From: Gemmatimonadota bacterium | GTDB taxonomy: Bacteria > Latescibacterota > UBA2968 | NCBI GenBank assembly: GCA_026706845.1 | Contig: JAPOXY010000024.1 | Location: 4,468-68,467 of the forward strand | DNA length: 64,000 bases | Direction of reading: 5' to 3' | In this document: positions 3,036 to 62,459 of the stretch, in pieces | Position numbering within the stretch: the stretch's first letter is position 1 | Layout: every line of letters begins with the position of its first letter | Notes under the pieces: generated by a model | Database searches by the model: none | Told to the model about the DNA's origin: nothing | Seen by the model: only the letters and a program-made list of their open reading frames with translations | Made by a program: the position numbers and the translations under genes

Positions 3036-4532
<1,497 letters not shown>

Positions 4533-4543
4533 TACCAAACCCC

Positions 4544-6202
4544 ATGCCAGACCGTCCCAACATTCTCGTCCTCATGACCGATCAGCAGCGAGCCGATGCC
4601 CTGGGTTGCGCTGGAAATACAACAATCCGCACGCCCAACCTCGACGGACTCGCCAATTCGGGTGTACGCTTTACACAGGCCGTCACGCCCACCCCCGTCT
4701 GCGTTGCCGCGCGCATGAGTTTTATCACCGGTCACAGAATGTCCCGGCACCACTGGACAGACAACAGTGCGCTACCTGGGCCCTTACCCGAGCTTCCCAC
4801 CATCATGACGCTTCTTCTCCGCGCCGGGTACTGGACGCAGGGCATTGGGAAAATGCACTTTCGCGGTCGGCACTACGGCTTCCGAAATCTCCTCACAATG
4901 GAAGAATGCATCGATCACCGGGTCGATGACGACTACCTCCGCTATCTGCGAGAAAACGGTGTTCGCACCCGTTTTCCCAAAGGCATCCGCGATCTGCTCT
5001 TCTTCCAGCCCCAAACCTGTGGCATACCCGTTGAACACCACAAAAATACCTGGGTCGCCGACCAGTCCATTGACTTTCTCCGCGAACACACGCGCTATCG
5101 CGCCAATCAACCCTTTTTCCTGTGGAGTTCCTGGATATCACCGCATCCGCCCTTTGCGCCCTGTGAACCGTACGACGACATGTACAACCCCGCCGACATG
5201 GCACTCCCGCCATTTGCCGAGCGCCCTATCGAAACCCTGCCCCCCAATTTTTACGGCAGCCGCGGACGTCTGGATGGAGCTCACCGCGACCCCGACCGTC
5301 TGCGCCGTCTGCGCGCCCTTTACTATGGCCTCATCTCCCATGTTGACGACGGCATCGGTCGCATTTTGAATGAACTCGAAACCCTCGGTCTATCCGATAA
5401 CACCGTCGTCCTCTTTGTCTCAGACCACGGTGAAATGATGGGCGAACACGGCCTTTCGCAAAAAAACTGTCCTTATGAATCCTCCGTCCGCATTCCATAT
5501 CTCCTCCGCTGGCCCGGCAAAACGCGAGCAGGGCAACAACGCGATGACCTCGTCAGCCTGCTCGACTTCTTTCCCACCCTCATAGAAGAACTCGACCTCC
5601 AGTATCCAGAAGAACATGGCCCGTTACCAGGAGCGAATCTCCTCGGCACAACAGGTGGGGGCCTGGCAGAGCCTCGAGAATCCGCGATTATAGACTACGG
5701 CAAGGGCAAAGGACGCTGGATTTCAGCGCGCAACCAGAAACACAAATACGCCTTTTTTGCCCACGGCGGAATCGAAGAACTCTACCACCTTGAAAACGAT
5801 CCACACGAACAGCACAACCTCATCGCCCAAAACCCCGCATTGGTGTCAAAATTTCGCGATCAAATCATCGCCTGGGAACGACAATATGGCCTGAGTAATT
5901 CGCTTGACGGCGATAGACTGCGCTTGTATTCCGGTCCGGCCCGCATACCCACAGAAAAAGAATGCCGCACGGTCATCCTCAACGACGGCCCCTGGCCCAA
6001 GCGCTTGCCCGACGATGAAAAAGACAGCATCGAAACCTTTGCCGAAGCATTTACCCGCGCCATCAGCAAAGAAACCACCTTATCGCCCGACAAATTGAGC
6101 ATCGGAAAATATAAAGAACAAGTACTCAAACGCAGCCCTCGGGATATCGCCGCAGAATCGCTTGAAGGCACACCCTGGGAAGACGCATGGCACAACGCAT
6201 AA
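4544..6202 (+). CDS. Sulfatase-family protein (arylsulfatase-like)
   Basis: PNILVLMTDQQRADALG at the N-terminus and the formylglycine-site variant C-V-A-A-R-MSFITG. The ATG at 4544 is preferred; the ORF-track extension from 4391 overlaps guaB. Confidence 0.9.
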   Translation: MPDRPNILVLMTDQQRADALGCAGNTTIRTPNLDGLANSGVRFTQAVTPTPVCVAARMSFITGHRMSRHHWTDNSALPGPLPELPTIMTLLLRAGYWTQGIGKMHFRGRHYGFRNLLTMEECIDHRVDDDYLRYLRENGVRTRFPKGIRDLLFFQPQTCGIPVEHHKNTWVADQSIDFLREHTRYRANQPFFLWSSWISPHPPFAPCEPYDDMYNPADMALPPFAERPIETLPPNFYGSRGRLDGAHRDPDRLRRLRALYYGLISHVDDGIGRILNELETLGLSDNTVVLFVSDHGEMMGEHGLSQKNCPYESSVRIPYLLRWPGKTRAGQQRDDLVSLLDFFPTLIEELDLQYPEEHGPLPGANLLGTTGGGLAEPRESAIIDYGKGKGRWISARNQKHKYAFFAHGGIEELYHLENDPHEQHNLIAQNPALVSKFRDQIIAWERQYGLSNSLDGDRLRLYSGPARIPTEKECRTVILNDGPWPKRLPDDEKDSIETFAEAFTRAISKETTLSPDKLSIGKYKEQVLKRSPRDIAAESLEGTPWEDAWHNA

Positions 6203-14577: not shown

Positions 14578-16257
14578 CTAAAATGCCCGACGAAACCGCA
14601 CCCAAACCCGCCAATCAACCGGATCATTCGCGTCCAGCGGACGGGCAAAAAACACGCGCAAATTATCGGTCTTTAATCCAAAACCCGCGCTCGTTACAAC
14701 CCGTGTTCCAACAGGCTCCTCATCTGGAAACCACGCCTTACCCGCATCAAAAAATACACCGATGCCAACATCATCCAGGGGCCAGTCATCTCGAAAATGA
14801 GCTTCGCCATCAACCCAATAAATCGCATTAAACAACACCATGCGATCTCCCTCATAAGCATTCAATCCATAACCTCTAAGCGAAGAAGGACCCCCGAGAC
14901 GATAGAGAAATTGCACGGGCACATGTCCTCGTCCAGTACCCGCGCGAACGCGCAAATTCAATTGGGTCCCACGCCCCGCATACTGATAGCGGCGCACATC
15001 CAGGATATAGCGTTCAAAATCAAAATCGCCTCCCAAAATACCACCTGCTTTCTCTGCCTGTGCCATTAAACGCCACCCCTGTCGAGACCGTCGGCTCGCA
15101 CGACTATCTAACTGTAGTGTCCCCATTACACTGCGCATTTGCCCGGACTCAATCTTGGGATTGGGGCGAAAATTCATTCGGCTACCCCATCGATCGCCGA
15201 ATAGATTCCAGGAAACGCTATTGGGCATCGACTCGAAAACATCTACACCCACCTGTCCTCGAACCTCTACCATGCGGTCAAAATCCCGAAAAATATAAGT
15301 ACTGGCCCCCTCCCGACGATAATAGTCTCTAAAATCGCGCCGCAACAAAAAGGCAAAAATCGAATTTTCTATTTCATCAATACGCCAATTATCTTGCGTA
15401 TTTGTCAACCCGTGCAATTCAAAACCCAGCGCAACTATGTTGTCCTTTGACGCACCAGAAAAAGTAAAAAACTCAGCACCAGCCTGATAATCCCATCGAT
15501 TACTTCCAAATCCATAACCCACTTCGCCATAGTGCGCCACCCCGCGCGAAGTGCGATATTTCAATGGCAAGCGCCAGCCAATAAAAACGCCATCCACGCG
15601 ATTGTAACGCACCAAAAAATCTTCGTGATCAACGCGCCAAATATTCGAAAATGGAGCAATACGCGCCTTCCAGGTCCTCAGGCGGTGGTGTGCTATGAGG
15701 GAGACAGGCGGTTTATATCCAGGCAATAAACGAGCAACGCGACCAAACGCCTCCACCTCTAATTCCCGACCAACAGTTCCCATTTTATCAATTTGAACAA
15801 CGCCAACCACATTGACCAGCGTTAAAGTGGCAGCCTTGCGATCATGGACCATTGCAAACAGACCAATAACAGCATCTGCTTCCTTCTGCAAATACACCAA
15901 TACGCGCTCGCGTTTCTTCCATGACTGAACGGTTATCTCCCAACCCATCGCATCTAAATATCGCGCAATTTTATCCATACGCATTGCAATCTCATCAATC
16001 GACAGAACATGTACGCGCACCAGCTTCAGATCTGATAGGGCTTCACCAATTTTTTTATTTTTACTTTTGACCCTTTCAGCGACCTGCTTCAACATCAATT
16101 GTCCAATAGACACATCCGCAGTGACATCTTTGGACTCAAATACATCCAGTGATTTAACCTCCACATAACCCAAATGACTGGAAATATCTTGTTGTGCATT
16201 CGCGATTCCAAAAATCAAAAAACAAATGACACTCGCGCACAAAATCATTCGGCACAT
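14578..16257 (-). CDS. Omp85/BamA-like outer-membrane beta-barrel protein with an unassigned N-terminal periplasmic domain
   Basis: Signal peptide (ICFLIFGIANAQQ), an LGGPSSLRGYG motif and a GVFFDAGKAW motif typical of surface-antigen (D15) barrels. The terminal residue is Phe. Confidence 0.65.
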   Translation of the reverse strand: MCRMILCASVICFLIFGIANAQQDISSHLGYVEVKSLDVFESKDVTADVSIGQLMLKQVAERVKSKNKKIGEALSDLKLVRVHVLSIDEIAMRMDKIARYLDAMGWEITVQSWKKRERVLVYLQKEADAVIGLFAMVHDRKAATLTLVNVVGVVQIDKMGTVGRELEVEAFGRVARLLPGYKPPVSLIAHHRLRTWKARIAPFSNIWRVDHEDFLVRYNRVDGVFIGWRLPLKYRTSRGVAHYGEVGYGFGSNRWDYQAGAEFFTFSGASKDNIVALGFELHGLTNTQDNWRIDEIENSIFAFLLRRDFRDYYRREGASTYIFRDFDRMVEVRGQVGVDVFESMPNSVSWNLFGDRWGSRMNFRPNPKIESGQMRSVMGTLQLDSRASRRSRQGWRLMAQAEKAGGILGGDFDFERYILDVRRYQYAGRGTQLNLRVRAGTGRGHVPVQFLYRLGGPSSLRGYGLNAYEGDRMVLFNAIYWVDGEAHFRDDWPLDDVGIGVFFDAGKAWFPDEEPVGTRVVTSAGFGLKTDNLRVFFARPLDANDPVDWRVWVRFRRAF

Positions 16258-16269
16258 ATTCTCCTCCGA

Positions 16270-17835
16270 TCAGAATAACAACAAACCCAACCCCACGCTG
16301 TACTCCATCCCACTATAATCCGTTTGCCCATCCACCGGCACAGCAAAAGGCTCGACAAACCGATTATAGCCTATGCGTCCACCCAGAACAAAAAACTTCA
16401 TAAACGGCACATCCAGTCCACCACCCCAATACAACCCATTCACTTCATCGACATTCTCATCCAATACTTTACCCGTGTACCGACCAACGCCTCCTTCGGC
16501 ATAAGGGCGCAGAGGTGAACGCCACATATTCAAAGGCATATAAATACGCAGACTGACCAGCTCAGATGACACGCCTGCTTTTTTTTCATCGTCAGCAAAC
16601 GAAAATCCCGAACGAGAATAATTGATCGAAACATGTTCTGTGGGCCAGAATCCAAAAATCCAGGCTTTGCTATCATCCCCCAGTTGCCAGGCACCCCTGC
16701 TGCGTTCAAGACGCCATCTGCCGGATAGCCTGTGTGGATAGCGGGCAGATGTCCCGATTGCTGGCTTCCTCAACGCAGGTCCTCGGCTTGTGGTTTTTTC
16801 GCGCACTTGAGAGCGAAAATGCCGATTCTCAAGCAAAAACCGCTCACCCTTTTTTAACGCGACCTTTGAATGCAACAATTGCATTCGCTGTTCAAAATGA
16901 ATGTCATAAACCTCGGGTTCCAATCCCAACTCGAGCGTTTGCCCGGCGGTCTTGTCCAGCTCTGCTACCAGTTGCTCCTGCGAATTGCGCACAAAAAATC
17001 GGCCATTCAACTCATCCGACAAAATCAAACTCGCCGACGTCTCTCGCACATCGGTCATCACCACATCGCCTGTACCCGTCATTTTAATATCATAAGCCGG
17101 ATGCTGCGCCCCTCCCTGCGTTTTTTCGGTTCGCTTCAGCGTATTGCGAAATGCAAACGCATACGCTTCGCTGAGTGTCACCTTACCATCACCAGTCACA
17201 TCTGCTGCACCCCGCAAGCCAGACACCAGATAATGCGTGAAAAACGATCCGCGAATGCGATCCGATTCTTGTGCAGCCTCATTTTCGGAACTCGAAGTCA
17301 AAAACGCATACCCCCGCATATCCGACGACGTATCGACCATAAAGGCTTTTTGCCTTTGCCCGCCTTTCAGGCGCGTAATAGCGCCCGAAGCACACGCATC
17401 CAGCACAGTAATATGCACATCCGCCTGAACGCTATTCATTGCATCGCGCAAAGCGCGATAGGTCAACCGATCTTCTCCCAACAGCAACCCATTTTCATCG
17501 GCATGCCCCGAATAATACAGGACAACTTCGATGCGACTCGACGATTGGGATGCTTTTATAACCCGAGATTGCAAATCCATCAAAACCCGTTTAAAATTTT
17601 CCAAACTCGGCTCGGCCAACAAAAATTGATCCTCAGATTCAACTCCCCCCATCATCTCTAAAACACGAGCAAAATGTTTTGCATCCGATACGGCATAACG
17701 CAGTGGTGTGCGTTTCACCCCACCAAAATTTGCGCCAGCCGCCAACACAAAACGCCGCACAACCTGTGTTGCCTCAATTCCCTGAGCACATAACAGCAGA
17801 CCGATCCCCAACAGTACTGCCCATCGGCGCAACAT
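16270..17835 (-). CDS. Caspase-like (peptidase C14) protein with a beta-barrel-like C-terminal region
   Basis: Signal peptide. Catalytic His in VVLYYSGHADENG and catalytic Cys in ITVLDACASG. The C-terminal 130 aa are rich in alternating aromatic and Gly residues and end in GLGLLLF. The ATG at 17835 overlaps the upstream stop (TGATG); a GTG at 17838 is also possible. Confidence 0.8.
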   Translation of the reverse strand: MLRRWAVLLGIGLLLCAQGIEATQVVRRFVLAAGANFGGVKRTPLRYAVSDAKHFARVLEMMGGVESEDQFLLAEPSLENFKRVLMDLQSRVIKASQSSSRIEVVLYYSGHADENGLLLGEDRLTYRALRDAMNSVQADVHITVLDACASGAITRLKGGQRQKAFMVDTSSDMRGYAFLTSSSENEAAQESDRIRGSFFTHYLVSGLRGAADVTGDGKVTLSEAYAFAFRNTLKRTEKTQGGAQHPAYDIKMTGTGDVVMTDVRETSASLILSDELNGRFFVRNSQEQLVAELDKTAGQTLELGLEPEVYDIHFEQRMQLLHSKVALKKGERFLLENRHFRSQVREKTTSRGPALRKPAIGTSARYPHRLSGRWRLERSRGAWQLGDDSKAWIFGFWPTEHVSINYSRSGFSFADDEKKAGVSSELVSLRIYMPLNMWRSPLRPYAEGGVGRYTGKVLDENVDEVNGLYWGGGLDVPFMKFFVLGGRIGYNRFVEPFAVPVDGQTDYSGMEYSVGLGLLLF

Positions 17836-18593
17836 CACCTGCCCCCTTTGTAAAGCGTAATGGCAAACTGCTCAAATTCTCTTCCCACCCTCAATGAATC
17901 GGGACCGCCCTCTGCCGCTTGTGCCACATCGCGCACGTCAAAAGACATATCTGCTGTCAAAAAATAAAACCGTTCCCACTTTGGAGCATCATCCAGTTCG
18001 TAAGAATAATCCAGAGACACCGGATCGCCCTGTATCAAGCGCACGGCACTTGTTCCCGATGAGGGCAAATGCCGCGTCACAGTGCCGCGCCCATCCACAG
18101 ACACAATCACCCCAAAAGGCTTGCCCGCCGCGCGATAAAAAATCTGAATCAAATCGCCTGTATAAGCCACACTGCTATCCGACAATTGTTCAATCTCAGA
18201 CGCCCTTTTTCGATATAGCAACAAATCCGGCTTTACGCCTTTTAACCGAATGCCATCCATCCCTTTCCGATCCCAGGGTGGCGGCACTTCAGGCCCCGGT
18301 AAAAAGATCGAAAAAACAACGGCGAGCAAAATCACAGCGGCCAATGCAAAACGCGGACCGAACCGCGATATACTCGACGGCCCTTGCCCCTCCGACCGGC
18401 GCGCAACCTGCCGCGCAACCCACTCAGCCGGATAGGACGCGTGAATTTCTCGATCTGACCCTTCCAATGCCTCCAGGCGCGCTCTCAAATCCGGGTCCTC
18501 ATCCAGCGCCCTTTGAACAGCTCTCATTTCTTCTTCCGGCAATTCATTCAGCCGAAAACGCTCCAGTTTCCAATCACCGCGTTGTCTCCTCAT
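17835..18593 (-). CDS. Anti-sigma factor, single-pass membrane protein with a DUF4384-like extracytoplasmic domain
   Basis: Cytoplasmic helical N-terminus, one TM segment (ALAAVILLAVVFSIFLPG) and a C-terminal domain resembling those that co-occur with caspase genes. ATGA overlap with the ECF sigma stop. Confidence 0.6.
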   Translation of the reverse strand: MRRQRGDWKLERFRLNELPEEEMRAVQRALDEDPDLRARLEALEGSDREIHASYPAEWVARQVARRSEGQGPSSISRFGPRFALAAVILLAVVFSIFLPGPEVPPPWDRKGMDGIRLKGVKPDLLLYRKRASEIEQLSDSSVAYTGDLIQIFYRAAGKPFGVIVSVDGRGTVTRHLPSSGTSAVRLIQGDPVSLDYSYELDDAPKWERFYFLTADMSFDVRDVAQAAEGGPDSLRVGREFEQFAITLYKGGR

Positions 18594-19063
18594 AGATCCT
18601 CCAACTTCTCCAGCGATTCTCGCAACCCCCGCAACCGCTTTCGCACTCCAGAAACCGACATCCCAACCTCCCGAGCGACTTCCGCCAATGTGAAACCATC
18701 CACAAAATGTAAAACCGCAATTGTTCGCGTCGAATCTCTGTGCCGGGCAAAAAGCCGGTCGAGCATCGCCCGAGCATCCAACCGCGATTCCAGATCTTCA
18801 ATCCCAGCAATGTGTATCAACTTCTCATCACCCGGCAGATCGAGCCGCTGATCGCGAATGCGATTCAAACACACATTGGTCGCAATGCGATATAGCAAAC
18901 TCGACGGATAGGTCGCTTTCAGACGATCCCGGCGTTGCAATACCCGCACAAAAACATCTTGCATGGCATCCATGGCGCGATCTTCATCTCGCAACAACCG
19001 CCGACAGCGACGCAACACCATAGGACCGTATTTTTGATATAACAATTCGACATTCATAAACAA
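18590..19063 (-). CDS. ECF-type RNA polymerase sigma-70 factor
   Basis: 157 aa with region 2 (DAMQDVFVRVLQ) and a region 4 HTH (GFTLAEVAREVGMSVSGVRKRLRG). Confidence 0.9.
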   Translation of the reverse strand: MFMNVELLYQKYGPMVLRRCRRLLRDEDRAMDAMQDVFVRVLQRRDRLKATYPSSLLYRIATNVCLNRIRDQRLDLPGDEKLIHIAGIEDLESRLDARAMLDRLFARHRDSTRTIAVLHFVDGFTLAEVAREVGMSVSGVRKRLRGLRESLEKLEDL

Positions 19064-20623: not shown

Positions 20624-20965
20624 ATGTCTAAAAACACCGACAACAACGCGCTCCTGAAGGATGTTCGATTTCAAACCATGCGCGGGTCTGGACCCGGCGG
20701 ACAACACCGCAACAAAGTTGAAACCGCCGTACGCGCTATCCACATACCCACGGGTATAACAGTCATCGCCACAGAACACCGCTCACAGTACCGCAACAAA
20801 CAACTCGCCCTCGAGCGTTTGCAAAACCGCCTGAGCGAACGCAACAAAAAGCGCAAACCGCGCATCAAAACCCGCCCCAACCGATCTTCAATCGAAAACC
20901 GCCTCGAAAAAAAACGACAGCGTGGAGAAAAAAAACGACAGCGACAGCGCGTGGTCAACCGTTAG
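20624..20965 (+). CDS. GGQ-domain peptidyl-tRNA hydrolase (compact release-factor-like or ArfB-like protein)
   Basis: GSGPGGQHRNKVETAVR with an RF-type HIPTGI and SQYRNK, followed by a very basic C-terminal tail (KKRKPRIKTRPNR...KKRQRGEKKRQRQR). Confidence 0.75.
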   Translation: MSKNTDNNALLKDVRFQTMRGSGPGGQHRNKVETAVRAIHIPTGITVIATEHRSQYRNKQLALERLQNRLSERNKKRKPRIKTRPNRSSIENRLEKKRQRGEKKRQRQRVVNR

Positions 20966-21957
20966 CTCCCAAAATGATCATATCCCAACTGCTCCAATAG
21001 CACGCGCTTGCCATCCTCATCTTCTATCATCACACTGCCATCGCCAGCCACGACCTCGCCAATGCGACAAATCGAATACTGCTCTGACAGTGCTTCGACC
21101 TTATCGACCTGTATGTGAGACACAGAAAATAGCAACTCGAAATCTTCCCCTCCAGTGAGAGCAAGATCCAATTTTTTTTCACCACGTACTTCACAAAATT
21201 TTATAAACGCCCGCGACATGGGGATTGCCGCTGCCCGAATCACAGCCGACACGCCACTTTGCCGGCAAACATGACTCAAATCCGAAGCCAATCCATCCGA
21301 CACATCGATCATCGCTGTCACCGCACCTGTCTCCGCCAACGCCTGCCCCAAATCCAACCGCGGCTCAGGTCGATAATGCCTTTGTAACAACGCAGTTCGC
21401 ACCTCGCCCGGCAGATCGACATCACCCAATACCACCCCTAAACCACCCGCAGCATCGCCCAACGTTCCCGATACATAGACGGCATCACCCACCTGTGCGC
21501 CAGACCGATAACACACCTGATCTCGCGCCATCTCACCCGTAAGCGTCAAACTCAAAACCAGCGCACCAGACGTGGCCGTTGTATCACCCCCTACAACAGC
21601 CACATCAAACCGATCTGCACACGCAAAAAGCCCGTTGTAAATACGCTCCACATAACCCGCATCACAATCACCCGACGCGCTAACCGCCACAACCGCATCC
21701 ATCGGTCTCCCGCCCATAGCAGCCACATCGGACAAACTCGCAGCCAGTAATTTGTACCCCACGCCTTCTGGCGGTGCCTGCGGCACAAAGTGTACGCCCT
21801 CAACCATCGCATCAACCGTCACCAATCGCACGCGCTCCTGCCCCGCAGCCATAACCGCGCAATCATCTCCAATCCCACACAGAACCCGATTGCGCTGTGT
21901 TTGTGCGGCAATGCGATCAATAAAACCGAACTCCCCTATATCCTTAAAACGGTCCAT
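20962..21957 (-). CDS. thiL: Thiamine-monophosphate kinase
   Basis: GEFGFIDRI, GIGDDCAV and AIR-synthase-like repeats. The ATG at 21957 is preferred; the ORF-track extension to 22035 overlaps the upstream gene. Confidence 0.88.
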   Translation of the reverse strand: MDRFKDIGEFGFIDRIAAQTQRNRVLCGIGDDCAVMAAGQERVRLVTVDAMVEGVHFVPQAPPEGVGYKLLAASLSDVAAMGGRPMDAVVAVSASGDCDAGYVERIYNGLFACADRFDVAVVGGDTTATSGALVLSLTLTGEMARDQVCYRSGAQVGDAVYVSGTLGDAAGGLGVVLGDVDLPGEVRTALLQRHYRPEPRLDLGQALAETGAVTAMIDVSDGLASDLSHVCRQSGVSAVIRAAAIPMSRAFIKFCEVRGEKKLDLALTGGEDFELLFSVSHIQVDKVEALSEQYSICRIGEVVAGDGSVMIEDEDGKRVLLEQLGYDHFGS

Positions 21958-21958
21958 C

Positions 21959-22723
21959 TCACACTTCCTCCCTCGCCCATGCCACAACATCGCGATACGC
22001 CACATCGCCCCCAAAAATATCCAGCGCACTGCCAATAGTCAGATCTACCCGACCCTGGCCCAACGCATTGACGCGGTACAAATCCGATAGCTCTCGCACC
22101 CCGCCTGCATAAGTTACCGGCACGGGTGACCATCTGCCCAATATTTCCACCAGAGGTTCTTCTACACCTGCGCGTTTGCCCTCTACATCAACCCCGTGCA
22201 CCAAAAACTCAGCACAATAACCGGCCAAAGCAATCAAAGTCTCCTCGCCGACAGTCACATCCGTAAATCTTTGCCAGCGATCCGTTACAACAACATAATC
22301 ATCACCGCGCTTTCGACAACTCAAATCCAGAACCAGACGCTCTCTGCCCACAGCCCGTATCATCTCATCCAACCGACTCATATCAATTTGCCCATCGCGA
22401 AAAACATAAGACGTCACAATCACATGGCTTGCACCCGCGCGCAAAAATTTTTCCGCATTGTGCGGCGTGATACCCCCGCCCATGTGCAGACCCCCGGGAA
22501 ACGCTTCCAGAGCTTCCAACGCCGCCGCTTCATTGCCCGGGCCAAGCGCAATCACATGGCCGCCCCAAAATCCATCCTCGCGATACAGCCGTGCATAATC
22601 CGCAGGAGAGCGTTCGGTCTCAAAATTTGTCACCGTGTGCTGGGCATCCCCATCGCGCAACGTGCCCCCCACGATTTGTACAACCCGGCCATCTTTCAAA
22701 TCGATACACGGTCTAAATTTCAT
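21959..22723 (-). CDS. HisA-family ProFAR isomerase homolog (His6-like long form)
   Basis: MKFRPCIDLKDGRVVQIVGG N-terminus and a TIM-barrel phosphate-binding GGGI motif. 254 aa. Confidence 0.8.
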   Translation of the reverse strand: MKFRPCIDLKDGRVVQIVGGTLRDGDAQHTVTNFETERSPADYARLYREDGFWGGHVIALGPGNEAAALEALEAFPGGLHMGGGITPHNAEKFLRAGASHVIVTSYVFRDGQIDMSRLDEMIRAVGRERLVLDLSCRKRGDDYVVVTDRWQRFTDVTVGEETLIALAGYCAEFLVHGVDVEGKRAGVEEPLVEILGRWSPVPVTYAGGVRELSDLYRVNALGQGRVDLTIGSALDIFGGDVAYRDVVAWAREEV

Positions 22724-46701: not shown

Positions 46702-47502
46702 ATGACCGAAGATGAAAAATATCTCTTTGACCTCAATGGGTATCTCGTCGTTAAAAACGTCTTGACCGAAGGCGAACTGGCCCTGGCGAACGAAGCGGTT
46801 GACCGCCACCTCGAAAAGGGGCGTATTCGCCCGAGAGAACAGCGTCTTGACGGCGACTCACCAGCCCTTGAAGGCACGCATGGACGCGGCGAATTGGGCA
46901 GCCTCATCCACTGGGACGAACCCTGGTGCAATCCCTTTCGCGACATGCTGGCGCACCCCCTCATAGTGCCCTACCTCAACGAAATACTCGGCAAAGGCTT
47001 TCGCATCGATCACCAGATGTTCCTGCTCTGGATGGATAAAGGAGCCGAAGGCCATCGCTTCCACGGCTCCTCTGGACCTGGATTTGACCCCAACCAGTAT
47101 TATATATTTAAAGATGGCAAAATGCACAACGGCCTCACCGTCGTCTCTATCCAGCTCACCGATGTCAACGCAGGCGATGGCGGCCTCTCCCTCATCCCGG
47201 GATCACACAAAAGCAATTATCCCTGTCCACAAGAAATGCGGCTGTATCAAAAACACCAGGAACACATCCGCCAGATCACCTGTAAGGCAGGCGACGCAAT
47301 CATCTTCACCGAAGCCGTCACACACGGCACCCTGCCCTGGAAAGCGGACCATCCGCGGCGGTCAACGCTCACCCGCTACACCGCCGGCAACATGGCTTAT
47401 GTACGTGCCTATGACATACCCGAATGGGCAAACGAACGGCAACGTGCGGTCATGGAACCACCCTATCACACGCGGCTAAATCGCCCAACACTCGAAGAAT
47501 GA
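46702..47502 (+). CDS. Phytanoyl-CoA dioxygenase (PhyH)-family Fe(II)/2-oxoglutarate oxygenase
   Basis: YLFDLNGYLVVKNVL N-terminus, a candidate His-x-Asp facial-triad segment (IDHQM) and the distal FTEAVTHGTLPW. Confidence 0.75.
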   Translation: MTEDEKYLFDLNGYLVVKNVLTEGELALANEAVDRHLEKGRIRPREQRLDGDSPALEGTHGRGELGSLIHWDEPWCNPFRDMLAHPLIVPYLNEILGKGFRIDHQMFLLWMDKGAEGHRFHGSSGPGFDPNQYYIFKDGKMHNGLTVVSIQLTDVNAGDGGLSLIPGSHKSNYPCPQEMRLYQKHQEHIRQITCKAGDAIIFTEAVTHGTLPWKADHPRRSTLTRYTAGNMAYVRAYDIPEWANERQRAVMEPPYHTRLNRPTLEE

Positions 47503-50888: not shown

Positions 50889-51878
50889 ATGTCTGAACTT
50901 CCACAACCAACCGAAGACCTCGCACAGGTCAAAACACAACTCGACACCTGTGGGTATGGCCTGCTCGCCAACGCGCTCAATGCAGAAGACCTCTCAAAAA
51001 TAAAAACCCGTCTAAAAGAACAAGCCCTTGCCGAAAAACAACGCGGGCTTGCATTTGAAGACGGAGGTGCAAAACAAAACTGGGGGGATTTTAGAAATAA
51101 AAACGGGCAGGTACGCGCAGGGGCGTTTACACAATCGGCAGGAGGCGTCAACCAGCGCGTGTGGATGCTGATCAACAAAGGTCGGGTATTTCAAGACATG
51201 CTATTACACTCAGGGGTTCGCAACATCATAGATCACGCACTGGGCAATGATTATTTGCTATCGAGCCATTCGGCCAACATCGCCAAACCCGGCGGCGTTC
51301 CCATGCGCCTGCACACAGACCAGTGGTGGATGCCCATGCCAACGCGCGCAGACCGAACGCATTTGCCCGCAGGCTCTATCAGCCGCGAGCAAACAGACGA
51401 ATCCGATACTGCATCCATCTGGCCCCGCGTCGTCGTCAACGTAGTATGGATGATCGGCGACTTCACAGCAGAAAACGGCGGCACCCGCATCGTTCCCAGC
51501 AGTCACCTGTGGGGACGCCGCCCAGACAATCCCGACGACAACGCCATCGAAACAGTCGCCCTCGAAGGTCCATCCGGCACAATTGGATTCCTCGACGGAC
51601 GCATCTGGCACGGCACGGGAGCCAATATAAGCGATCAACTGCGCTGGGCCATACTCACCACATTTTGCGGACCCCAGTTCCGTCCACAGGAAAATTTTAC
51701 CATAGGCACGGCACCCGAAGTCCTCGCCGAGGCATCGCCCGATCTCCTGTCTTTACTCGGATTCAAAGTGTGGAATGCCTACGGACGTGTCGAAAGCCCA
51801 GCCGTAGAATATATCCAACCCGGCGAACAATCCCTGGGCGAAATGCGTCCTGAACGTACAGTTGGGAGAAACTTTTAA
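50889..51878 (+). CDS. Phytanoyl-CoA dioxygenase (PhyH)-family oxygenase
   Basis: GYGLLANAL N-terminus, LHTDQWW (H-x-D) and the distal IWHGTGAN. Confidence 0.75.
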   Translation: MSELPQPTEDLAQVKTQLDTCGYGLLANALNAEDLSKIKTRLKEQALAEKQRGLAFEDGGAKQNWGDFRNKNGQVRAGAFTQSAGGVNQRVWMLINKGRVFQDMLLHSGVRNIIDHALGNDYLLSSHSANIAKPGGVPMRLHTDQWWMPMPTRADRTHLPAGSISREQTDESDTASIWPRVVVNVVWMIGDFTAENGGTRIVPSSHLWGRRPDNPDDNAIETVALEGPSGTIGFLDGRIWHGTGANISDQLRWAILTTFCGPQFRPQENFTIGTAPEVLAEASPDLLSLLGFKVWNAYGRVESPAVEYIQPGEQSLGEMRPERTVGRNF

Positions 51879-51903
51879 GCATACAGATTTGTCAAAAGTA
51901 GGT

Positions 51904-51989
51904 AGGGGGTGAACGGTCCAAGGGGGCCGCCCGACACTGGTCGGTGGTGCGGGCAACTGCATAGGGTTCGATTCCCTCACCCTCTGCCA
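51904..51989 (+). tRNA. Non-canonical tRNA-like RNA, copy A (8-bp acceptor / 4-bp T stem, long variable arm, G73, encoded CCA; no canonical anticodon loop)
   Basis: AGGGGGTG pairs with CACCCTCT (8 bp, one G:U). D arm CGGTCC-AAGG-GGGCCG. Hairpin CCGAC-ACTG-GTCGG in the anticodon position. Variable arm GTGCGG-GCAA-CTGCAT. T arm AGGG-TTCGATT-CCCT, then G-CCA. Confidence 0.55.
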
Positions 51990-52009
51990 AAAAACAACAG
52001 TATAAATGC

Positions 52010-52098
52010 AGGGGGTGAACACCATTTGGCATGGGGCGGAGCATTCTGGCTTCGTGTGTGGGCAACCACTCAGGGTTCGATTCCCTCACCCTCTGCCA
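52010..52098 (+). tRNA. Non-canonical tRNA-like RNA, copy B (same 8/4 architecture)
   Basis: Acceptor, T arm and GCCA end are identical to copy A. D arm CACCAT-TTGGC-ATGGGG (one A:G mismatch). Hairpin GGAGC-ATTCTG-GCTTC. Variable arm GTGTGG-GCAA-CCACTC. Stem sequences differ from copy A but remain paired. Confidence 0.55.
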
Positions 52099-52100
52099 GC

Positions 52101-52874
52101 CTACCCGAACATCTCTTTTGCAAACGCCAAATTTTTCTTACCCGATGCCACAGGATCAGCACCCCCTGGCGTTTCAAAAATCAGCCAACCCTCGTAACCG
52201 ATCTGTGCAATCGCATCTCGACACGCGGGAAAATCCACATCACCTTCGCCCAGATCAGAACGCCGCGTATCTTTAATATGAATCAATTGTGTGTGTTCAG
52301 GTAAAGTAACGAGCATATCGACCGAATCGTACCCGTATTGCAGCGCATTAGCCGTATCCTGATACACCCCCACCATCTCAGATCCCACACCATCGCAAAT
52401 CGTTCTCAACAATCCCGGAGAAAAACTCGTCTCCAGAGCAACCTTAATACCCTCGTCTTCGGCGACAGGGGCGCATCGCTTCATATCCTCAATCAACAAT
52501 TCTGCATGCGCGCTCGACATATCGAGATTCTCCCCATCGAAATACGGAAGCAAAATACCGACACCTCCCATCCCCTTACACGCGCGGATCGCCTTTTGCA
52601 CAAGCTCCACCACGCGGTCGCGCACAGCCTCATCTTCCTCATTCCCCTTGTATTCTCGAAACAGGGCAAAACTTATTGAACACGCTTGCGCGCCCGTCTC
52701 CTCAACCCATCGCCCAACCTCCTCCCGGCCCGCCGCGCTCAAAAGCCAATCCAACCGCTCCTCCTCTCGCAGTACAATCTCCACCCCATCAAACCCAATA
52801 TCCCCTGCTGTGGCAAAAGCGTCTTTCCCCCAATCCATATTCAGACTCGCATTGCGAATCCCGTACAAATACAT
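52101..52874 (-). CDS. Sugar phosphate isomerase/epimerase (xylose-isomerase-like TIM barrel)
   Basis: 257 aa. The pattern GFDGVEI, ALET and HIKD is typical of the AP-endonuclease-2/xylose-isomerase-like TIM family. Confidence 0.8.
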   Translation of the reverse strand: MYLYGIRNASLNMDWGKDAFATAGDIGFDGVEIVLREEERLDWLLSAAGREEVGRWVEETGAQACSISFALFREYKGNEEDEAVRDRVVELVQKAIRACKGMGGVGILLPYFDGENLDMSSAHAELLIEDMKRCAPVAEDEGIKVALETSFSPGLLRTICDGVGSEMVGVYQDTANALQYGYDSVDMLVTLPEHTQLIHIKDTRRSDLGEGDVDFPACRDAIAQIGYEGWLIFETPGGADPVASGKKNLAFAKEMFG

Positions 52875-58592: not shown

Positions 58593-59864
58593 CTACCCAA
58601 ACCGATCCACTATCAGTGCAGACAGATCAATAGAAGGCACTTCATCGGAAACCAGTTCTGCCACCAGCTTTCCGGTAACAGGACCCAGAGAAATGCCGAT
58701 CATCGCATGACCGGCAGCCACGATCACATTCTCAAACCCGGGAGCGCGGCCGAGAAATGGCACACCATCGGGCGTGCAGGGCCGCAAACCGCACCAAATT
58801 TCTATCATCTCGAGATAATCGGGATTCAAATCGGGAAAATAGTCGGGCACAGCTCTGAGAATAGCCTGCACGCGCCGCTGATTGATCGAAAAATCGAGAC
58901 CTGCCAATTCGAGCGTACCCGCAAACCGCAGCATATCACCCATAGGCGTAATACCGACCTTTGCTTCCCCCAGAGAAAATGGCGTCGTCGGACAAACATC
59001 AGGCCGCTTAAAAGTAATACTATACCCCTTGGCAGGTTGAATCGGCAAATCGATATGAAGATCCTTGGCAATCACAGGCGACCACGACCCACCCGCCAAA
59101 ATAACGTGCTCAGCCCGGAAATCCCCCCGATTCGTCTTCACAGCAACCACGCGACCGCGCGAAGTCTTAAACCCCAGAACCTCTGTCTCCCTATGGATCC
59201 GAACACCCTTTCCACCCACGTAATGCGCCAACCCACGCACAAAGCGGTGCGGCACGAGATGGGCATCCTCGGGAAAAAATATCCCACCAATCGCCCGTAT
59301 CCGAATGCCGGAATTTAATCCCACCATCTCATCGGCATCGAGAACCCGCGTCTCAACCCCCACCTCCGACAAAAAACGCGCGTCCTTAACCGCCTTTGCC
59401 AAACCCCTCTCAGTTCTATATGCCGTGATCGTCCCCCTCTTCTCAAACCCAAAATCCATGCCCTCGAGCGCTACCATCTCTTCAAACAACGCCACACTCG
59501 CCATATTCATCGCCCGAATAACAGGCGTTGCCCTCGCAACATGCTTCTCATTACATGCACGGCGAAAATGCCACAACCAGGAAAACAAATCCCGGTCCAA
59601 ACGCGGCTTAATATAAAACGGACTCTCTGGGTTCAACATCCACTTCAGACTTTGAAACACCACCCCCGGAGCTGACAGAGGTATGCTGTGACTCGGCACA
59701 ACAAGCCCCCCATTCCCATACGAACACCCCGAACAAATATCGCCTTTATCAACCAGCGCGACATCTCTACCCGCAGCATTTAAATAATAAGCCGAGCAAA
59801 CACCGATTGCCCCACCGCCAACAATCAATATTTCTGCCTGTTCACTCATCTGTATAGACCTCAA
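58593..59864 (-). CDS. FAD-dependent oxidoreductase (D-amino-acid dehydrogenase-like)
   Basis: ILIVGGGAIGVCSAYYL dinucleotide-binding motif, with a layout parallel to DadA (KWMLNPESPFYIKP). The start may be the internal ATG at 59849. Confidence 0.8.
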   Translation of the reverse strand: MRSIQMSEQAEILIVGGGAIGVCSAYYLNAAGRDVALVDKGDICSGCSYGNGGLVVPSHSIPLSAPGVVFQSLKWMLNPESPFYIKPRLDRDLFSWLWHFRRACNEKHVARATPVIRAMNMASVALFEEMVALEGMDFGFEKRGTITAYRTERGLAKAVKDARFLSEVGVETRVLDADEMVGLNSGIRIRAIGGIFFPEDAHLVPHRFVRGLAHYVGGKGVRIHRETEVLGFKTSRGRVVAVKTNRGDFRAEHVILAGGSWSPVIAKDLHIDLPIQPAKGYSITFKRPDVCPTTPFSLGEAKVGITPMGDMLRFAGTLELAGLDFSINQRRVQAILRAVPDYFPDLNPDYLEMIEIWCGLRPCTPDGVPFLGRAPGFENVIVAAGHAMIGISLGPVTGKLVAELVSDEVPSIDLSALIVDRFG

Positions 59865-61297
59865 CCCGCGCGATGGTCCAAAACGACCTCTCTCAGTTCA
59901 GCCACGACCTCCCCATAGGCGGGATCTTCCACGCAATTATTTAACTCGCCCTGATCTCTCGCCAGATCGTACAACTCACAGGGCGTCCCCGTTGGAACAT
60001 GCAGCGTAAAGCGATAGCCTTCATTCCGCACCCCGGTCCAATCCTCAATCGTCGAAAACACGTACTCATACCTCCCAGAACCGCGTTCCAACATCGGCAA
60101 CAGTGATTGCCCGCGGGCACCCTCCGGCGGTGTCACCTGCCCAATCTCTGCGATTGTCGAAACCACATCAATCAACTGCGTGAGATCGCCACAAACCCCT
60201 CTGTTCTTGCGGTCCGGTGGACTGACAATCAGCGGAACCTGAACCGAGCCCTCGTAAAAACAGTGCTTTGCCCACAAATGGTGTTCGCCGAGCATCTCGC
60301 CGTGGTCCGCGCTGTAAATAATCCACGTATTGTCCAGTTCCCCCAACGCATCCAGCGTATCAATCACCTCGCCAATCTTCTGATCAACCAGAGAAACAGC
60401 ACCCAGATAATGCCTGATGCCCTCGCGCACAAAATCATCCGTCATCGTCTGAACCTGAGAATGCGCCTTGAGCCGTTTGACCTTTTCTGCCCAAACCTCA
60501 TTCGTAGCGCTCGGCATCGTCATATTCGGCAATTCGATATCGGCATCTGCATAATAAGCCGCCCAAATCGGATCATCCATCAGCGGAACATGCGGCTGCA
60601 CAAAACCCAGATGAAGATAAAACGGCTTCTCGGAATCGCGCGATTGCAACCAATCCATCGCGTGATCGGCAATAAAACTGGATAACTCGCATTCCTGGGG
60701 CAACACACTCGTCTCGCCCCGCCAGTGCGTGGGCGTAAGCCTGTAAATCCCCCGGATCTGTTCCTGATGCGCCTTTAGGAGACCCCGTTCCTCAAGAAAA
60801 TCCATATACGGACTTTTCACATGGCTCTGAACATGTCCATACCGGTCGTATTCCTCCATCACATAATCCCACCCAAAACCCTTCACAAAATCTCCAAACT
60901 GCCGCGTATCGAAACGCTCCCCGCGTTCTCCCGCCTCCTGAGAACCGGGCCGACCGTGATAATGCGTCTTGCCAATCGACGCGGTCTCATACCCCCCGCC
61001 CTGCAACTGCTTCATAATCGTCGGCCATGCGGACTTAAAAGGACTATCATCAACCGTATCCCCGCGATCAGCCGTAACATTAGACGTAAACCCCAGTTCA
61101 TGCGTATATCGCCCCGTAATCATCGTAGCCCTGCACGGCATACAAACCGGACACTGCGTCCACGTCCGCTCAAAACGCATACCCCAATCCGTTAGTCGAT
61201 CCAGATTCGGCGTCTGGACTAGCGGATGCCCGGCGCAGCCGAGCACATCGTGACGGTGTTGATCGCTAAAAATGAACAGAATATTTGGTTGTTTCAT
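59861..61297 (-). CDS. Sulfatase-family protein
   Basis: PNILFIFSDQHRHDVLG and the canonical C-M-P-C-R-ATMITG formylglycine motif. ATG at 61297 with a GGGGAG RBS; the ORF-track start at 61417 overlaps the M48 gene. Confidence 0.9.
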   Translation of the reverse strand: MKQPNILFIFSDQHRHDVLGCAGHPLVQTPNLDRLTDWGMRFERTWTQCPVCMPCRATMITGRYTHELGFTSNVTADRGDTVDDSPFKSAWPTIMKQLQGGGYETASIGKTHYHGRPGSQEAGERGERFDTRQFGDFVKGFGWDYVMEEYDRYGHVQSHVKSPYMDFLEERGLLKAHQEQIRGIYRLTPTHWRGETSVLPQECELSSFIADHAMDWLQSRDSEKPFYLHLGFVQPHVPLMDDPIWAAYYADADIELPNMTMPSATNEVWAEKVKRLKAHSQVQTMTDDFVREGIRHYLGAVSLVDQKIGEVIDTLDALGELDNTWIIYSADHGEMLGEHHLWAKHCFYEGSVQVPLIVSPPDRKNRGVCGDLTQLIDVVSTIAEIGQVTPPEGARGQSLLPMLERGSGRYEYVFSTIEDWTGVRNEGYRFTLHVPTGTPCELYDLARDQGELNNCVEDPAYGEVVAELREVVLDHRAG

Positions 61298-61352
61298 AAA
61301 CTCTCCCCAGAACCCTTTAAGACCACCTATAAACAAGTATAAATTGTGTCTC

Positions 61353-62459
61353 CTATTTTGGCCTTCTGGCGCACATCTTCTGAATCTCTGACCAGTCGGT
61401 ATCTGGTAAGAGGGCAACAGATTCGTAATCGCTCTGGTCAGCTATCTGCTTCAACCTTTCAATGCGTTCCTCGGTGCGTGGATGAGTTGATACATAGCTC
61501 AAAAAACGGGGAATATCTCCCACTTCTTTTTTCAGTGTTTCAAAAAACACAACCATGCCTTTGGGATCAATTTTGGCCTTCTGAAGCATTTGCATGCCTT
61601 TTTGATCGGCTTCGGCTTCATCTTGACGGCGGAAGCGCAACCCGCCCAATGTATGCACTGTTTCAAGCGCGTAGTGCAGCCCCCCCGCATCTCCCGACAG
61701 GGCAGAGAGAAGCATGCCAATTGACAATTCGCGGAGAATTGCCCGCGTTGAATGGCGCTGAAGGATGTGTTGAATTTCGTGTGCAAGCACAGCGGCGAGT
61801 TCCTCGGGCGATTTGGTTTTTTTGAGTAATCCATCGTGTATGACAATATATCCGCCAGGCGCTGCAAAGGCGTTGATAATTGGATCTCGCTTTAAAATAA
61901 TATGCATATGGTAGGGGGATGACTGTTCGGTTTTCAGGAGCAAATCGGCAATACCTTCAATGGCTTTCTGACAATCTGGATCGTCAATTCGCCTATTTTC
62001 GGGAGCAAGCAATGAAACGACCTGAGCACCGAGTTCTTCCTCCCAGCGGACGGGCAAATAAACCACCACAAGATCCGTTAGCGTTGGAATGCCACGAAAA
62101 TAGAACACCAGACCGATGACAATAATTGCCACAGCAGATAGCACGGTGAGTGCCGTTCTGTGCCTGCGGAAACGCGGATTGTGAAAACTACTGCGATTCG
62201 GTGCAATATAGTGAATAGCCTGAAGAAAAACGGGATCGTCAACAACGAGCATTTCATCCCCTTTTTCCAGGCGCACCTGTTCACCCGTATAAGTACCCTG
62301 AGACTGCCGGATCTGATGAAAATACCAGTGGAAAACGGTACCATCGATCTTTGCAATCTCAAGTCCCGCATTGGAAATAGTGATGGAAACACGATGGGGG
62401 GTCGTACTATACCCGTCGAAATAGCGACCATCCCATCTGTCCTGTCGCAATGTGTCCAC
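61353..62459 (-). CDS. M48-family zinc metallopeptidase with an N-terminal cytoplasmic domain and a TM segment
   Basis: HEIQH (HExxH) motif, downstream EAEAD, and one TM segment (ALTVLSAVAIIVIGLVFYF). A GTG start shares 1 nt with the upstream stop (TAGTG). Confidence 0.85.
   Translation of the reverse strand: MDTLRQDRWDGRYFDGYSTTPHRVSITISNAGLEIAKIDGTVFHWYFHQIRQSQGTYTGEQVRLEKGDEMLVVDDPVFLQAIHYIAPNRSSFHNPRFRRHRTALTVLSAVAIIVIGLVFYFRGIPTLTDLVVVYLPVRWEEELGAQVVSLLAPENRRIDDPDCQKAIEGIADLLLKTEQSSPYHMHIILKRDPIINAFAAPGGYIVIHDGLLKKTKSPEELAAVLAHEIQHILQRHSTRAILRELSIGMLLSALSGDAGGLHYALETVHTLGGLRFRRQDEAEADQKGMQMLQKAKIDPKGMVVFFETLKKEVGDIPRFLSYVSTHPRTEERIERLKQIADQSDYESVALLPDTDWSEIQKMCARRPK

Follow-up and report, generated by a model that had tools for sequence, protein, structure and literature searches.

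The staphylococcal non-proteinogenic tRNAGly are aminoacyl donors for the FemXAB peptidoglycan bridges; their anticodon loop is normal, and weak binding to EF-Tu keeps them out of translation. The tRNAOther of Bacillus cereus is charged by a complex of LysRS1 and LysRS2. It is encoded by a tRNA-like gene that is non-functional in translation and affects the physiology of the cell (PMC3399842). Closest in shape to the elements reported here are the (8/4) allo-tRNAs, which combine a 12-bp 8/4 acceptor/T branch, a long variable (V) arm, a tRNASec-like D arm with a long stem and a small loop, and G73; they carry an anticodon (35 different ones are listed), many of them decode in Escherichia coli, and some species are inactive in translation and have been proposed to be regulatory (PMC5389517). 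Here we analysed a stretch of 64,000 nt (hereafter the window, taken at its full length) of contig JAPOXY010000024.1 from a genome deposited as Gemmatimonadota bacterium (assembly GCA_026706845.1; Latescibacterota, UBA2968 in GTDB), in which an initial annotation, made from the letters alone, had pointed to a tandem pair of tRNA-like genes, copies A and B. Our analysis indicates that these two genes very probably belong to a selected, non-decoding family of tRNA-like RNA genes. The fuller reading, in which the product is a non-decoding allo-tRNA-like RNA that would be aminoacylated and act as an aminoacyl carrier or a tRNA mimic, has in our estimate a probability of roughly 0.5.

On the + strand, and only there, a four-arm cloverleaf was both the minimum free energy (MFE) and the centroid structure of each copy (RNAfold; z-scores of -2.0 and -1.65, against +0.15 and -0.85 on the - strand). 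An 8-bp acceptor stem is followed in both copies by AA, a D arm, a single C, a hairpin in the anticodon position, a 2-nt linker, a V arm (6-bp stem, GCAA loop), a T arm (4-bp stem, UUCGAUU loop), a G and CCA (Table 1). The two genes have their 5' end (AGGGGGTGAAC) and their 3' end (AGGGTTCGATTCCCTCACCCTCTGCCA) in common, and a 26-mer inside the shared 3' end occurs exactly twice in the window, where 0 occurrences are expected (none in 100 shuffles). The cloverleaf drawn arm by arm in the initial annotation agrees with both predicted structures, and its coordinates, lengths of 86 and 89 nt, 20-nt spacing and shared ends were all exact. Its statement that the diverged stems keep pairing held with a small correction: copy B carries one A.G mismatch in the D stem and one U.U mismatch in the V stem. 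Thermodynamic folding alone (RNAfold, RNAalifold) favoured a 9/3 branch, in which an A9-U pair replaces the A-U pair closing the T stem, and a hypothetical fifth T-stem pair would be U.C in copy A or C.C in copy B.

When 185,579 species-representative genomes were scanned for exact matches to the 3' 25-mer, three loci were returned (L001-L003), all of them in metagenome-assembled genomes of Candidatus Latescibacterota and all syntenic with the window; two of the three are on complete chromosomes, with one match each. L002 and L003 hold one copy each and L001 three tandem copies. Among complete genomes of the clade, OZ242320 and OZ244960 carry the element. Further loci were gathered through orthologues of the TIM-barrel protein that flanks the array and were then searched with a nine-copy covariance model. 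This brought the total to 23 copies in 12 syntenic loci (18 distinct sequences of 86-111 nt, in arrays of 1-3 copies), and those outside the model-building set were matched with E = 1e-9 to 1e-25, including copies in loci whose TIM protein is 74-81% identical to that of the window. A metagenome scan for the pattern V-loop + T-arm + GCCA found six ordinary class I tRNAs only and no homologue. In viral sequences, neither a strict pattern nor an acceptor-based gapped pattern gave any match (0 each), and a loose pattern returned more than 120 ordinary tRNAs and was uninformative. Additionally, blastn gave no match against plasmids and, against phages, only 30-nt T-arm/acceptor matches to Vibrio-phage tRNA-Trp. 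As far as sampled, the family is confined to one Latescibacterota clade, and no description of tRNA-like RNAs in Latescibacterota was found in the literature.

The comparison of these copies supported the predicted structure. In a nine-copy MAFFT alignment made without fitting to a structure, 98.1% of the pair cells were paired and 11 of 29 pairs had changed on both sides, whereas sliding the 3' partners by 1-3 columns as a control lowered pairing to 46-53%; RNAalifold recovered the same four arms independently. The alignment of all 23 copies (A2) gave 97.7% paired cells and compensatory changes in 18 of the 29 pairs, with all five helices represented, figures to be read knowing that it was fitted to the covariance model and is hence biased toward the structure. 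New compensatory events were present in sequences outside the model (T-stem A-U to G-C, a second T-stem pair from G-C to A-U, and acceptor pair 6 from G-C to A-U), and RNAfold again predicted the cloverleaf for the divergent copies. With regard to the acceptor/T branch, the pair closing the T stem is A-U in 16 and G-C in 2 of the 18 distinct sequences, and the A9 pairing of the 9/3 alternative is broken in those same two, namely the L135-L138 copy with the large loop and copy 3 of L146. Since the closing pair covaries where the A9 pairing is lost, the alignment favours 8/4 over 9/3 geometry, through two events only; the 8/4 assignment of the initial annotation was settled by this comparative evidence and not by folding energies, as thermodynamics prefers 9/3. 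Furthermore, G.U pairs are frequent (G3:U70 in 17 of 18 distinct sequences, G.U at 93-108 in 14 of 18), which identifies the + strand as the functional one.

Mean pairwise identities among the 18 distinct sequences showed where the family is constrained. The discriminator is invariant (1.00, always G) and identity is high in the acceptor strands (0.96 and 0.92), the T stem (0.92), the V-stem strands (0.91 and 0.81) and the T loop (0.85); it falls to 0.52-0.61 in the D-stem strands, 0.47-0.51 in the strands of the anticodon-position stem and 0.28 in the anticodon-position loop, whose length runs from 4 to 12 nt. The D and anticodon-position arms are conserved as helices only. In contrast, V-arm length is fixed at 15-16 nt, GG is present in all D loops and the T loop is always UUCRANN; these D-loop and T-loop nucleotides are the ones that build the tRNA elbow. 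The alignment shows an intact tRNA 'top half' plus V arm, with the lower half serving only as a structural strut.

The copies fall into types according to the anticodon-position hairpin. Type A, to which copy A belongs, has a 5-bp stem with an ACUG or AUUG loop and is nearly always the copy proximal to the TIM-barrel gene; type B has an AUUCUG loop that is identical in three genomes (B-type orthologues in L001 and L131); and type C has an 11-12-nt loop beginning with AGC. We infer that the tandem A, B and C paralogues arose by duplication and diverged mainly in the dispensable lower half. The TIM-proximal copy of L146 (644-754, - strand) has a 7-bp anticodon-position stem with a UUGA loop, no encoded CCA, and a 30-nt D region with an extra hairpin that turns the cloverleaf into a five-way junction, a form reminiscent of the 'five-stem-junction' variants that Mukai et al. 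mention among allo-tRNAs. CCA is encoded in 20 of the 23 copies. Copy 1 of L131 is the sole distinct sequence without G3:U70 (A-U instead); it also lacks CCA and a cloverleaf fold, and is probably degenerating. Between L131 and the other genomes the TIM protein is 77-81% identical and its four-fold degenerate sites 54-64%, whereas the A-type RNA is 92-98% identical. The A type is far more conserved than the neighbouring four-fold sites and is thus under purifying selection. Together with the compensatory changes in all five helices, this bears out the initial annotation in that the structure is selected and not decaying. The G3:U70 pair, the large-loop paralogue type, a copy number of 0-3, the restriction to one clade and the 9/3 alternative had not been seen in that annotation.

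Standard detectors did not recognise these genes. ARAGORN called no tRNA or tmRNA in the whole window, nor in 17 related loci, and Rfam gave no match in the window at gathering thresholds. In permissive mode, the best Rfam model was tRNA-Sec (RF01852), with scores of 14.6 bits (copy A) and 29.4 bits (copy B), below the gathering score of 47; the relatives reached 29-41 bits, all under that score. The match to the Rfam tRNA clan was also below threshold, and that to tmRNA was at chance level (10.5 bits, E = 8). The likeness to tRNASec proposed at the outset is borne out by this ranking, though below threshold, and the result makes clear that conserved tRNA-like genes can escape standard tRNA finders and Rfam. 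The allo-tRNAs, too, surface as sub-threshold matches to the tRNASec covariance model.

Compared feature by feature, the family has most of what defines an allo-tRNA. The 12-bp branch is complete (8 acceptor pairs 98.6% and 4 T-stem pairs 100% paired in the 18 distinct sequences); the V arm is long in every copy (6-bp stem with a 3-4-nt loop, 15-16 nt); the D arm is tRNASec-like, mostly with a 6-bp stem and a 4-6-nt loop always containing GG (the exceptions being two CCA-less first copies with 4-5-bp stems and larger loops, and L146 c3 with its extra hairpin); and the discriminator, G73 or U73 in allo-tRNAs, is G in 23 of 23 copies. Some allo-tRNAs also have G3:U70. Unlike them, however, no copy here has a 7-nt anticodon loop with U33 and a triplet, and for this reason we do not file the family as allo-tRNAs in the sense of translational adaptors. 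The hosts also differ, since allo-tRNAs have been reported in Clostridia, Proteobacteria and Acidobacteria and the named records of our family are Candidatus Latescibacterota, and no toxin-antitoxin genes lie near the Latescibacterota copies, unlike the case of some inactive allo-tRNAs. At least in those parts of the allo-tRNA literature available to us, no anticodon-less form appears to be described, the family being presented there by its anticodons. What is new is therefore the anticodon-less, allo-tRNA-like family, and the 8/4 allo-tRNA scaffold was already known.

The other known systems are more distant. Bacterial tRNASec shares the 8-bp acceptor, the 6-bp D stem with a loop of about 4 nt, the long V arm and G73; it differs in having a 5-bp and not a 4-bp T stem, hence a 13-bp 8/5 and not a 12-bp branch, and a UCA anticodon in a 7-nt loop, and neither these features nor a score of at least 47 bits was found in the copies. 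In addition, no Sec genes are present in the 64-kb window. The canonical class II tRNAs (Ser/Leu/Tyr) have a 7/5 branch and a 7-nt loop, neither of which occurs here. The tRNA-like domain of tmRNA resembles the family in its G3:U70 acceptor stem, canonical T loop and missing anticodon, but the units in the window are complete 86-89-nt cloverleaves with D, anticodon-position and V arms, G73 and not A73, and no mRNA-like domain with tag frame or pseudoknots. B. cereus tRNAOther is alike in being a tRNA-like gene outside translation, and unlike in its unrelated sequence and its canonical-type cloverleaf at the border of a genomic island, with neither 8/4 branch nor long V arm. The staphylococcal tRNAGly embody the same concept of an off-ribosome carrier; here the anticodon loop itself is gone, and no Fem-type enzyme is encoded in the window.

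These features suggest how the RNAs may work. The transcript would be matured like a tRNA, with an RNase P cut at A1 and a CCA 3' end, and would then be charged by a synthetase that ignores the anticodon. The family carries the long V arm, G73, G2-C71, G3:U70 and G4-C69. Serylation is determined mainly by the long variable arm and G73, independently of the anticodon, and of the elements used by E. coli SerRS on tRNASec, G73 is the strongest; bacterial Ala identity consists of A73, G2-C71, G3.U70 and G4-C69 (PMC9976931). In E. coli, moreover, natural allo-tRNAs that carry G3:U70 led to the insertion of both Ala and Ser, the latter attributed to G73 (PMC5389517, PMC7590224). By these rules, SerRS could recognise the RNAs through the long V arm and G73, and AlaRS through G2-C71, G3:U70 and G4-C69, so that charging with Ser and/or Ala is probable. 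Loops of 4, 6 or 11-12 nt, from which no anticodon could be assigned, as the initial annotation had also concluded, cannot present an anticodon, and therefore a charged RNA of this kind would have to work off the decoding path, either as an aminoacyl donor in a non-ribosomal reaction or as a mimic or decoy occupying a tRNA-binding factor. A more specific version of this mechanism, which we regard as possible but rather unlikely, would make the A-, B- and C-type RNAs dedicated ribosome-excluded carriers, charged with Ser and/or Ala by the housekeeping synthetase through identity elements outside the anticodon and feeding a tRNA-dependent reaction outside translation. Candidate reactions would be cell-envelope or lipid aminoacylation, natural-product synthesis, or conversion of a tRNA-bound amino acid of the SelA/SepCysS kind. 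A link to selenium through the AIRS-family protein at 20962-22035 was considered and discarded, as this protein is ThiL and not SelD.

Several observations weigh against the carrier or mimic reading, in addition to the alignment bias mentioned above. The G73 of the family differs from the bacterial Ala discriminator A73, and the first pair, A1-U72, is atypical for tRNASer. Moreover, the acceptor end (A1-U72, G2-C71, G4-C69, G5-C68, G73, plus A9; positions 51904-51911 with 51978-51986 in copy A) fits 6 of the 7 non-anticodon determinants of bacterial tRNATrp (PMC9976931), so that it is ambiguous whether the amino acid would be Ser, Ala or Trp-like; the copies lack, however, the CCA anticodon, which is the major determinant of Trp identity. 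Pfam assignments of the approximately 50 open reading frames (ORFs) in the 64-kb window included no enzyme that uses aminoacyl-tRNA (Fem, MprF, cyclodipeptide synthase, SelA and the like) and no synthetase paralogue. Three copies have no encoded CCA. The homologues all come from one clade and one syntenic locus, which implies few independent evolutionary events. Finally, a covariance-model search found no element beside the TIM orthologue in L130, L140-L144 and L147-L148, and L132-L134 keep only a 3' fragment (V arm, T arm, acceptor 3' strand and GCCA) joined to unrelated sequence. L130 and L149 are parts of a single 5.63-Mb contig (s374.ptg000434c) on which the orthologues of the two flanking genes lie about 2.2 Mb apart and the element is beside neither, so the whole 5.6-Mb genome lacks it at both places; relocation of the array with the PhyH-family gene was considered for this genome and rejected, as the PhyH orthologue there has no array either. 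Such absence and truncation suggest that the element is dispensable or mobile within the genome.

The main competitor of the charged-RNA reading is an uncharged tRNA mimic or regulatory RNA, which would have the tRNA fold, would not be aminoacylated, and would titrate a tRNA-recognising factor (a synthetase, EF-Tu, RNase P, a toxin or a stringent-response sensor) or form a module of a longer regulatory transcript. The evidence for structure and selection is identical for both, no promoter or terminator of its own was detected for the array in 51500-52500, and there are precedents: Mukai et al. found inactive allo-tRNAs near toxin-antitoxin genes and suggest that some allo-tRNAs serve as 'regulatory noncoding RNAs' (PMC5389517), and tRNAOther is another case (PMC3399842). 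Nevertheless, importance of the 3' end itself is suggested by the invariant discriminator and the CCA kept in 20 of the 23 copies, and also by the conserved G3:U70 pair and the constant length of the V arm; no toxin-antitoxin, Fur-type or other regulatory partner lies nearby, so we consider an uncharged mimic a serious but minority option. The array could also be a cis-acting 3'-end module of the upstream operon, at which cleavage by RNase P or RNase Z defines or protects the mRNA end and leaves the tRNA-like RNAs as by-products. The mascRNA plays such a 3'-end role for MALAT1. The position of the array would suit such a module, as only 25 nt separate it from the co-directional gene before it and neither a terminator nor a sigma-70 promoter lies in between, and the L131 and L146 arrays likewise lie downstream of a co-directional gene. 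However, the conservation of the RNA and its leader does not extend to the upstream gene, which differs between loci (PhyH, a SASA esterase or an unknown 126-aa ORF), and a processing signal would need neither a constant V arm, G73 and G3:U70 nor 1-3 diverged paralogues; we find this quite improbable.

The remaining explanations fare worse. That the genes are pseudogenes in decay, what remains of an earlier allo-tRNA or tRNASec gene once a recoding trait was lost, is suggested by the destroyed anticodon loop, by the patchy distribution with loss and truncation, by the copies without CCA and by L131 copy 1 with neither cloverleaf fold nor G3:U70. Yet the A type is 92-98% identical against 54-64% at neutral sites, the stems, including the one in the anticodon position, are kept by compensatory changes, and the loops are conserved within each type; decay is thus very unlikely overall and, judging from these alignments, largely refuted for the A and B types, although it may apply to individual CCA-less copies. 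Even less credit goes to genuine decoding tRNAs (missense, nonsense or frameshift suppressors) with an abnormal anticodon loop. With EF-Tu and the E. coli ribosome, allo-tRNAs use a branch of the same 12-bp length (PMC5389517), and the 6-nt loop of the B type could in principle expose a triplet, but the universal A type closes its 5-bp stem with a loop of 4 nt, the loops of the C types measure 11-12 nt and a 7-nt loop with U33 occurs in no copy; the length of the loop changes threefold in an otherwise constant RNA, and ARAGORN calls none. The 'unusual suppressor' that the initial annotation had kept among its options is now disfavoured, given these loop lengths. We rate lowest of all an origin as attachment-site remnants or as a small mobile repeat derived from a tRNA gene: the copy number of 0-3 and the 3' fragment left alone in L132-L134, as at integrase targets, would fit, but no integrase or mobile-element gene is next to any locus, the exact 3' 25-mer is found once in each of the two complete chromosomes, and viral contigs, phages and plasmids gave no matches to the element. 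The truncated copy of L132-L134 was itself examined as an integration site and rejected, its neighbours being metabolic genes and not an integrase.

The array lies between two convergent genes (Table 1), starting 25 nt 3' of a co-directional gene for a PhyH-family dioxygenase and ending 2 nt from the stop codon (52101-52103) of a gene for a xylose-isomerase-like TIM-barrel protein on the - strand. A consensus scan of 51500-52500 found no terminator-like or sigma-70-like sites, in accordance with the close convergent stop and missing terminator described at the outset; possible -10 boxes read by hand in the leader and spacers were unconvincing, and we make no claim for them. A block of about 35 nt, GAAACYCTTGAGCGCGCAGNTTTGTCAAAATAGGT (window 51866-51903), is kept 5' of the first copy in all arrays (L001-L003, L135-L139, L145 and L131). 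It persists in L131 (about 4329-4370, minus strand) despite a different upstream gene and with the four-fold sites of the neighbouring gene only about 57% identical there, and may be a promoter or processing signal. The A-rich spacer between copies A and B (AAAAACAACAGTATAAATGC) is resembled by the spacers (..AACAGCATCAATGC) between copies in L001 and L135-L138. Overlapping ORFs (e.g. 51909-52304, + strand) were ruled out as coding because the copies differ by 1-2-nt indels in their loops and by paired compensatory changes.

Table 1. Features of the tandem array and its surroundings (positions in the window unless a locus is named).
Feature	Position	Strand	Remarks
PhyH-family dioxygenase gene, upstream, co-directional	50889-51878	+	Pfam PF05721; synteny in L001-L003, L135-L139
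5' leader, PhyH stop codon to copy A	51879-51903	+	part of the conserved block of about 35 nt
Copy A (A type) tRNA-like gene	51904-51989	+	86 nt; sequence, fold, covariance-model match 103.4 bits, orthologues in 10 other loci, purifying selection
Copy A acceptor 5' strand	51904-51911	+	
Copy A AA linker	51912-51913	+	
Copy A D arm	51914-51929	+	6 bp + AAGG
Copy A single C	51930	+	
Copy A anticodon-position hairpin	51931-51944	+	5 bp + ACUG (4-nt loop)
Copy A UG linker	51945-51946	+	
Copy A V arm	51947-51962	+	6 bp + GCAA
Copy A T arm	51963-51977	+	4 bp + UUCGAUU
Copy A acceptor 3' strand	51978-51985	+	
Copy A G73	51986	+	
Copy A CCA	51987-51989	+	
A-rich spacer between copies A and B	51990-52009	+	20 nt
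Copy B (B type) tRNA-like gene	52010-52098	+	89 nt; sequence, fold, covariance-model match 92.6 bits
Copy B acceptor 5' strand	52010-52017	+	
Copy B AA linker	52018-52019	+	
Copy B D arm	52020-52036	+	
Copy B single C	52037	+	
Copy B anticodon-position hairpin	52038-52053	+	5 bp + AUUCUG (6-nt loop)
Copy B GU linker	52054-52055	+	
Copy B V arm	52056-52071	+	
Copy B T arm	52072-52086	+	
Copy B acceptor 3' strand	52087-52094	+	
Copy B G73	52095	+	
Copy B CCA	52096-52098	+	
TIM-barrel gene (sugar phosphate isomerase/epimerase family), convergent	52101-52874	-	Pfam PF01261; homologues P0001-P0027
3' fragment of the element	L132:2362-2394; L133 and L134: 3786-3818	-	TIM-barrel orthologue 77% identical

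The PhyH gene is a syntenic landmark with no evident functional link to the RNA array. It has a paralogue at 46702-47502 in the same + strand gene run, which also encodes a CehA/McbA-type metallohydrolase, a periplasmic binding protein, an sCache protein and an MFS transporter, and sulfatases are encoded at 4391-6202 and 59861-61417; these PhyH and sulfatase surroundings are a catabolic neighbourhood without a link to RNA biology. Elsewhere in the window (14578-19063, minus strand), an ECF sigma factor, an unknown 252-aa protein, a caspase-domain (Peptidase_C14) protein and an Omp85/DUF4252 protein form a cluster. GC skew was negative in all 2-kb bins of positions 1-64000 (cumulative -5.4), and with no skew switch the whole window lies on one replichore arm.

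Under purifying selection, the family has done away with the anticodon but kept every part that a synthetase, RNase P or EF-Tu contacts. When the allo-tRNAs were described in 2017, they were oddly shaped tRNAs able to misread codons, and a non-translational role was left open; the Latescibacterota RNAs offer a natural test case for the non-translational use of a charged tRNA-like RNA, with molecules of 86-93 nt that can be synthesised and used directly in Ser or Ala charging tests. For synthetic biology, they provide a natural tRNA scaffold that tolerates very different inserts in the anticodon position. If the RNAs are indeed dedicated carriers, they would represent the first natural case of a tRNA family that has uncoupled charging from decoding by deletion of its anticodon loop.

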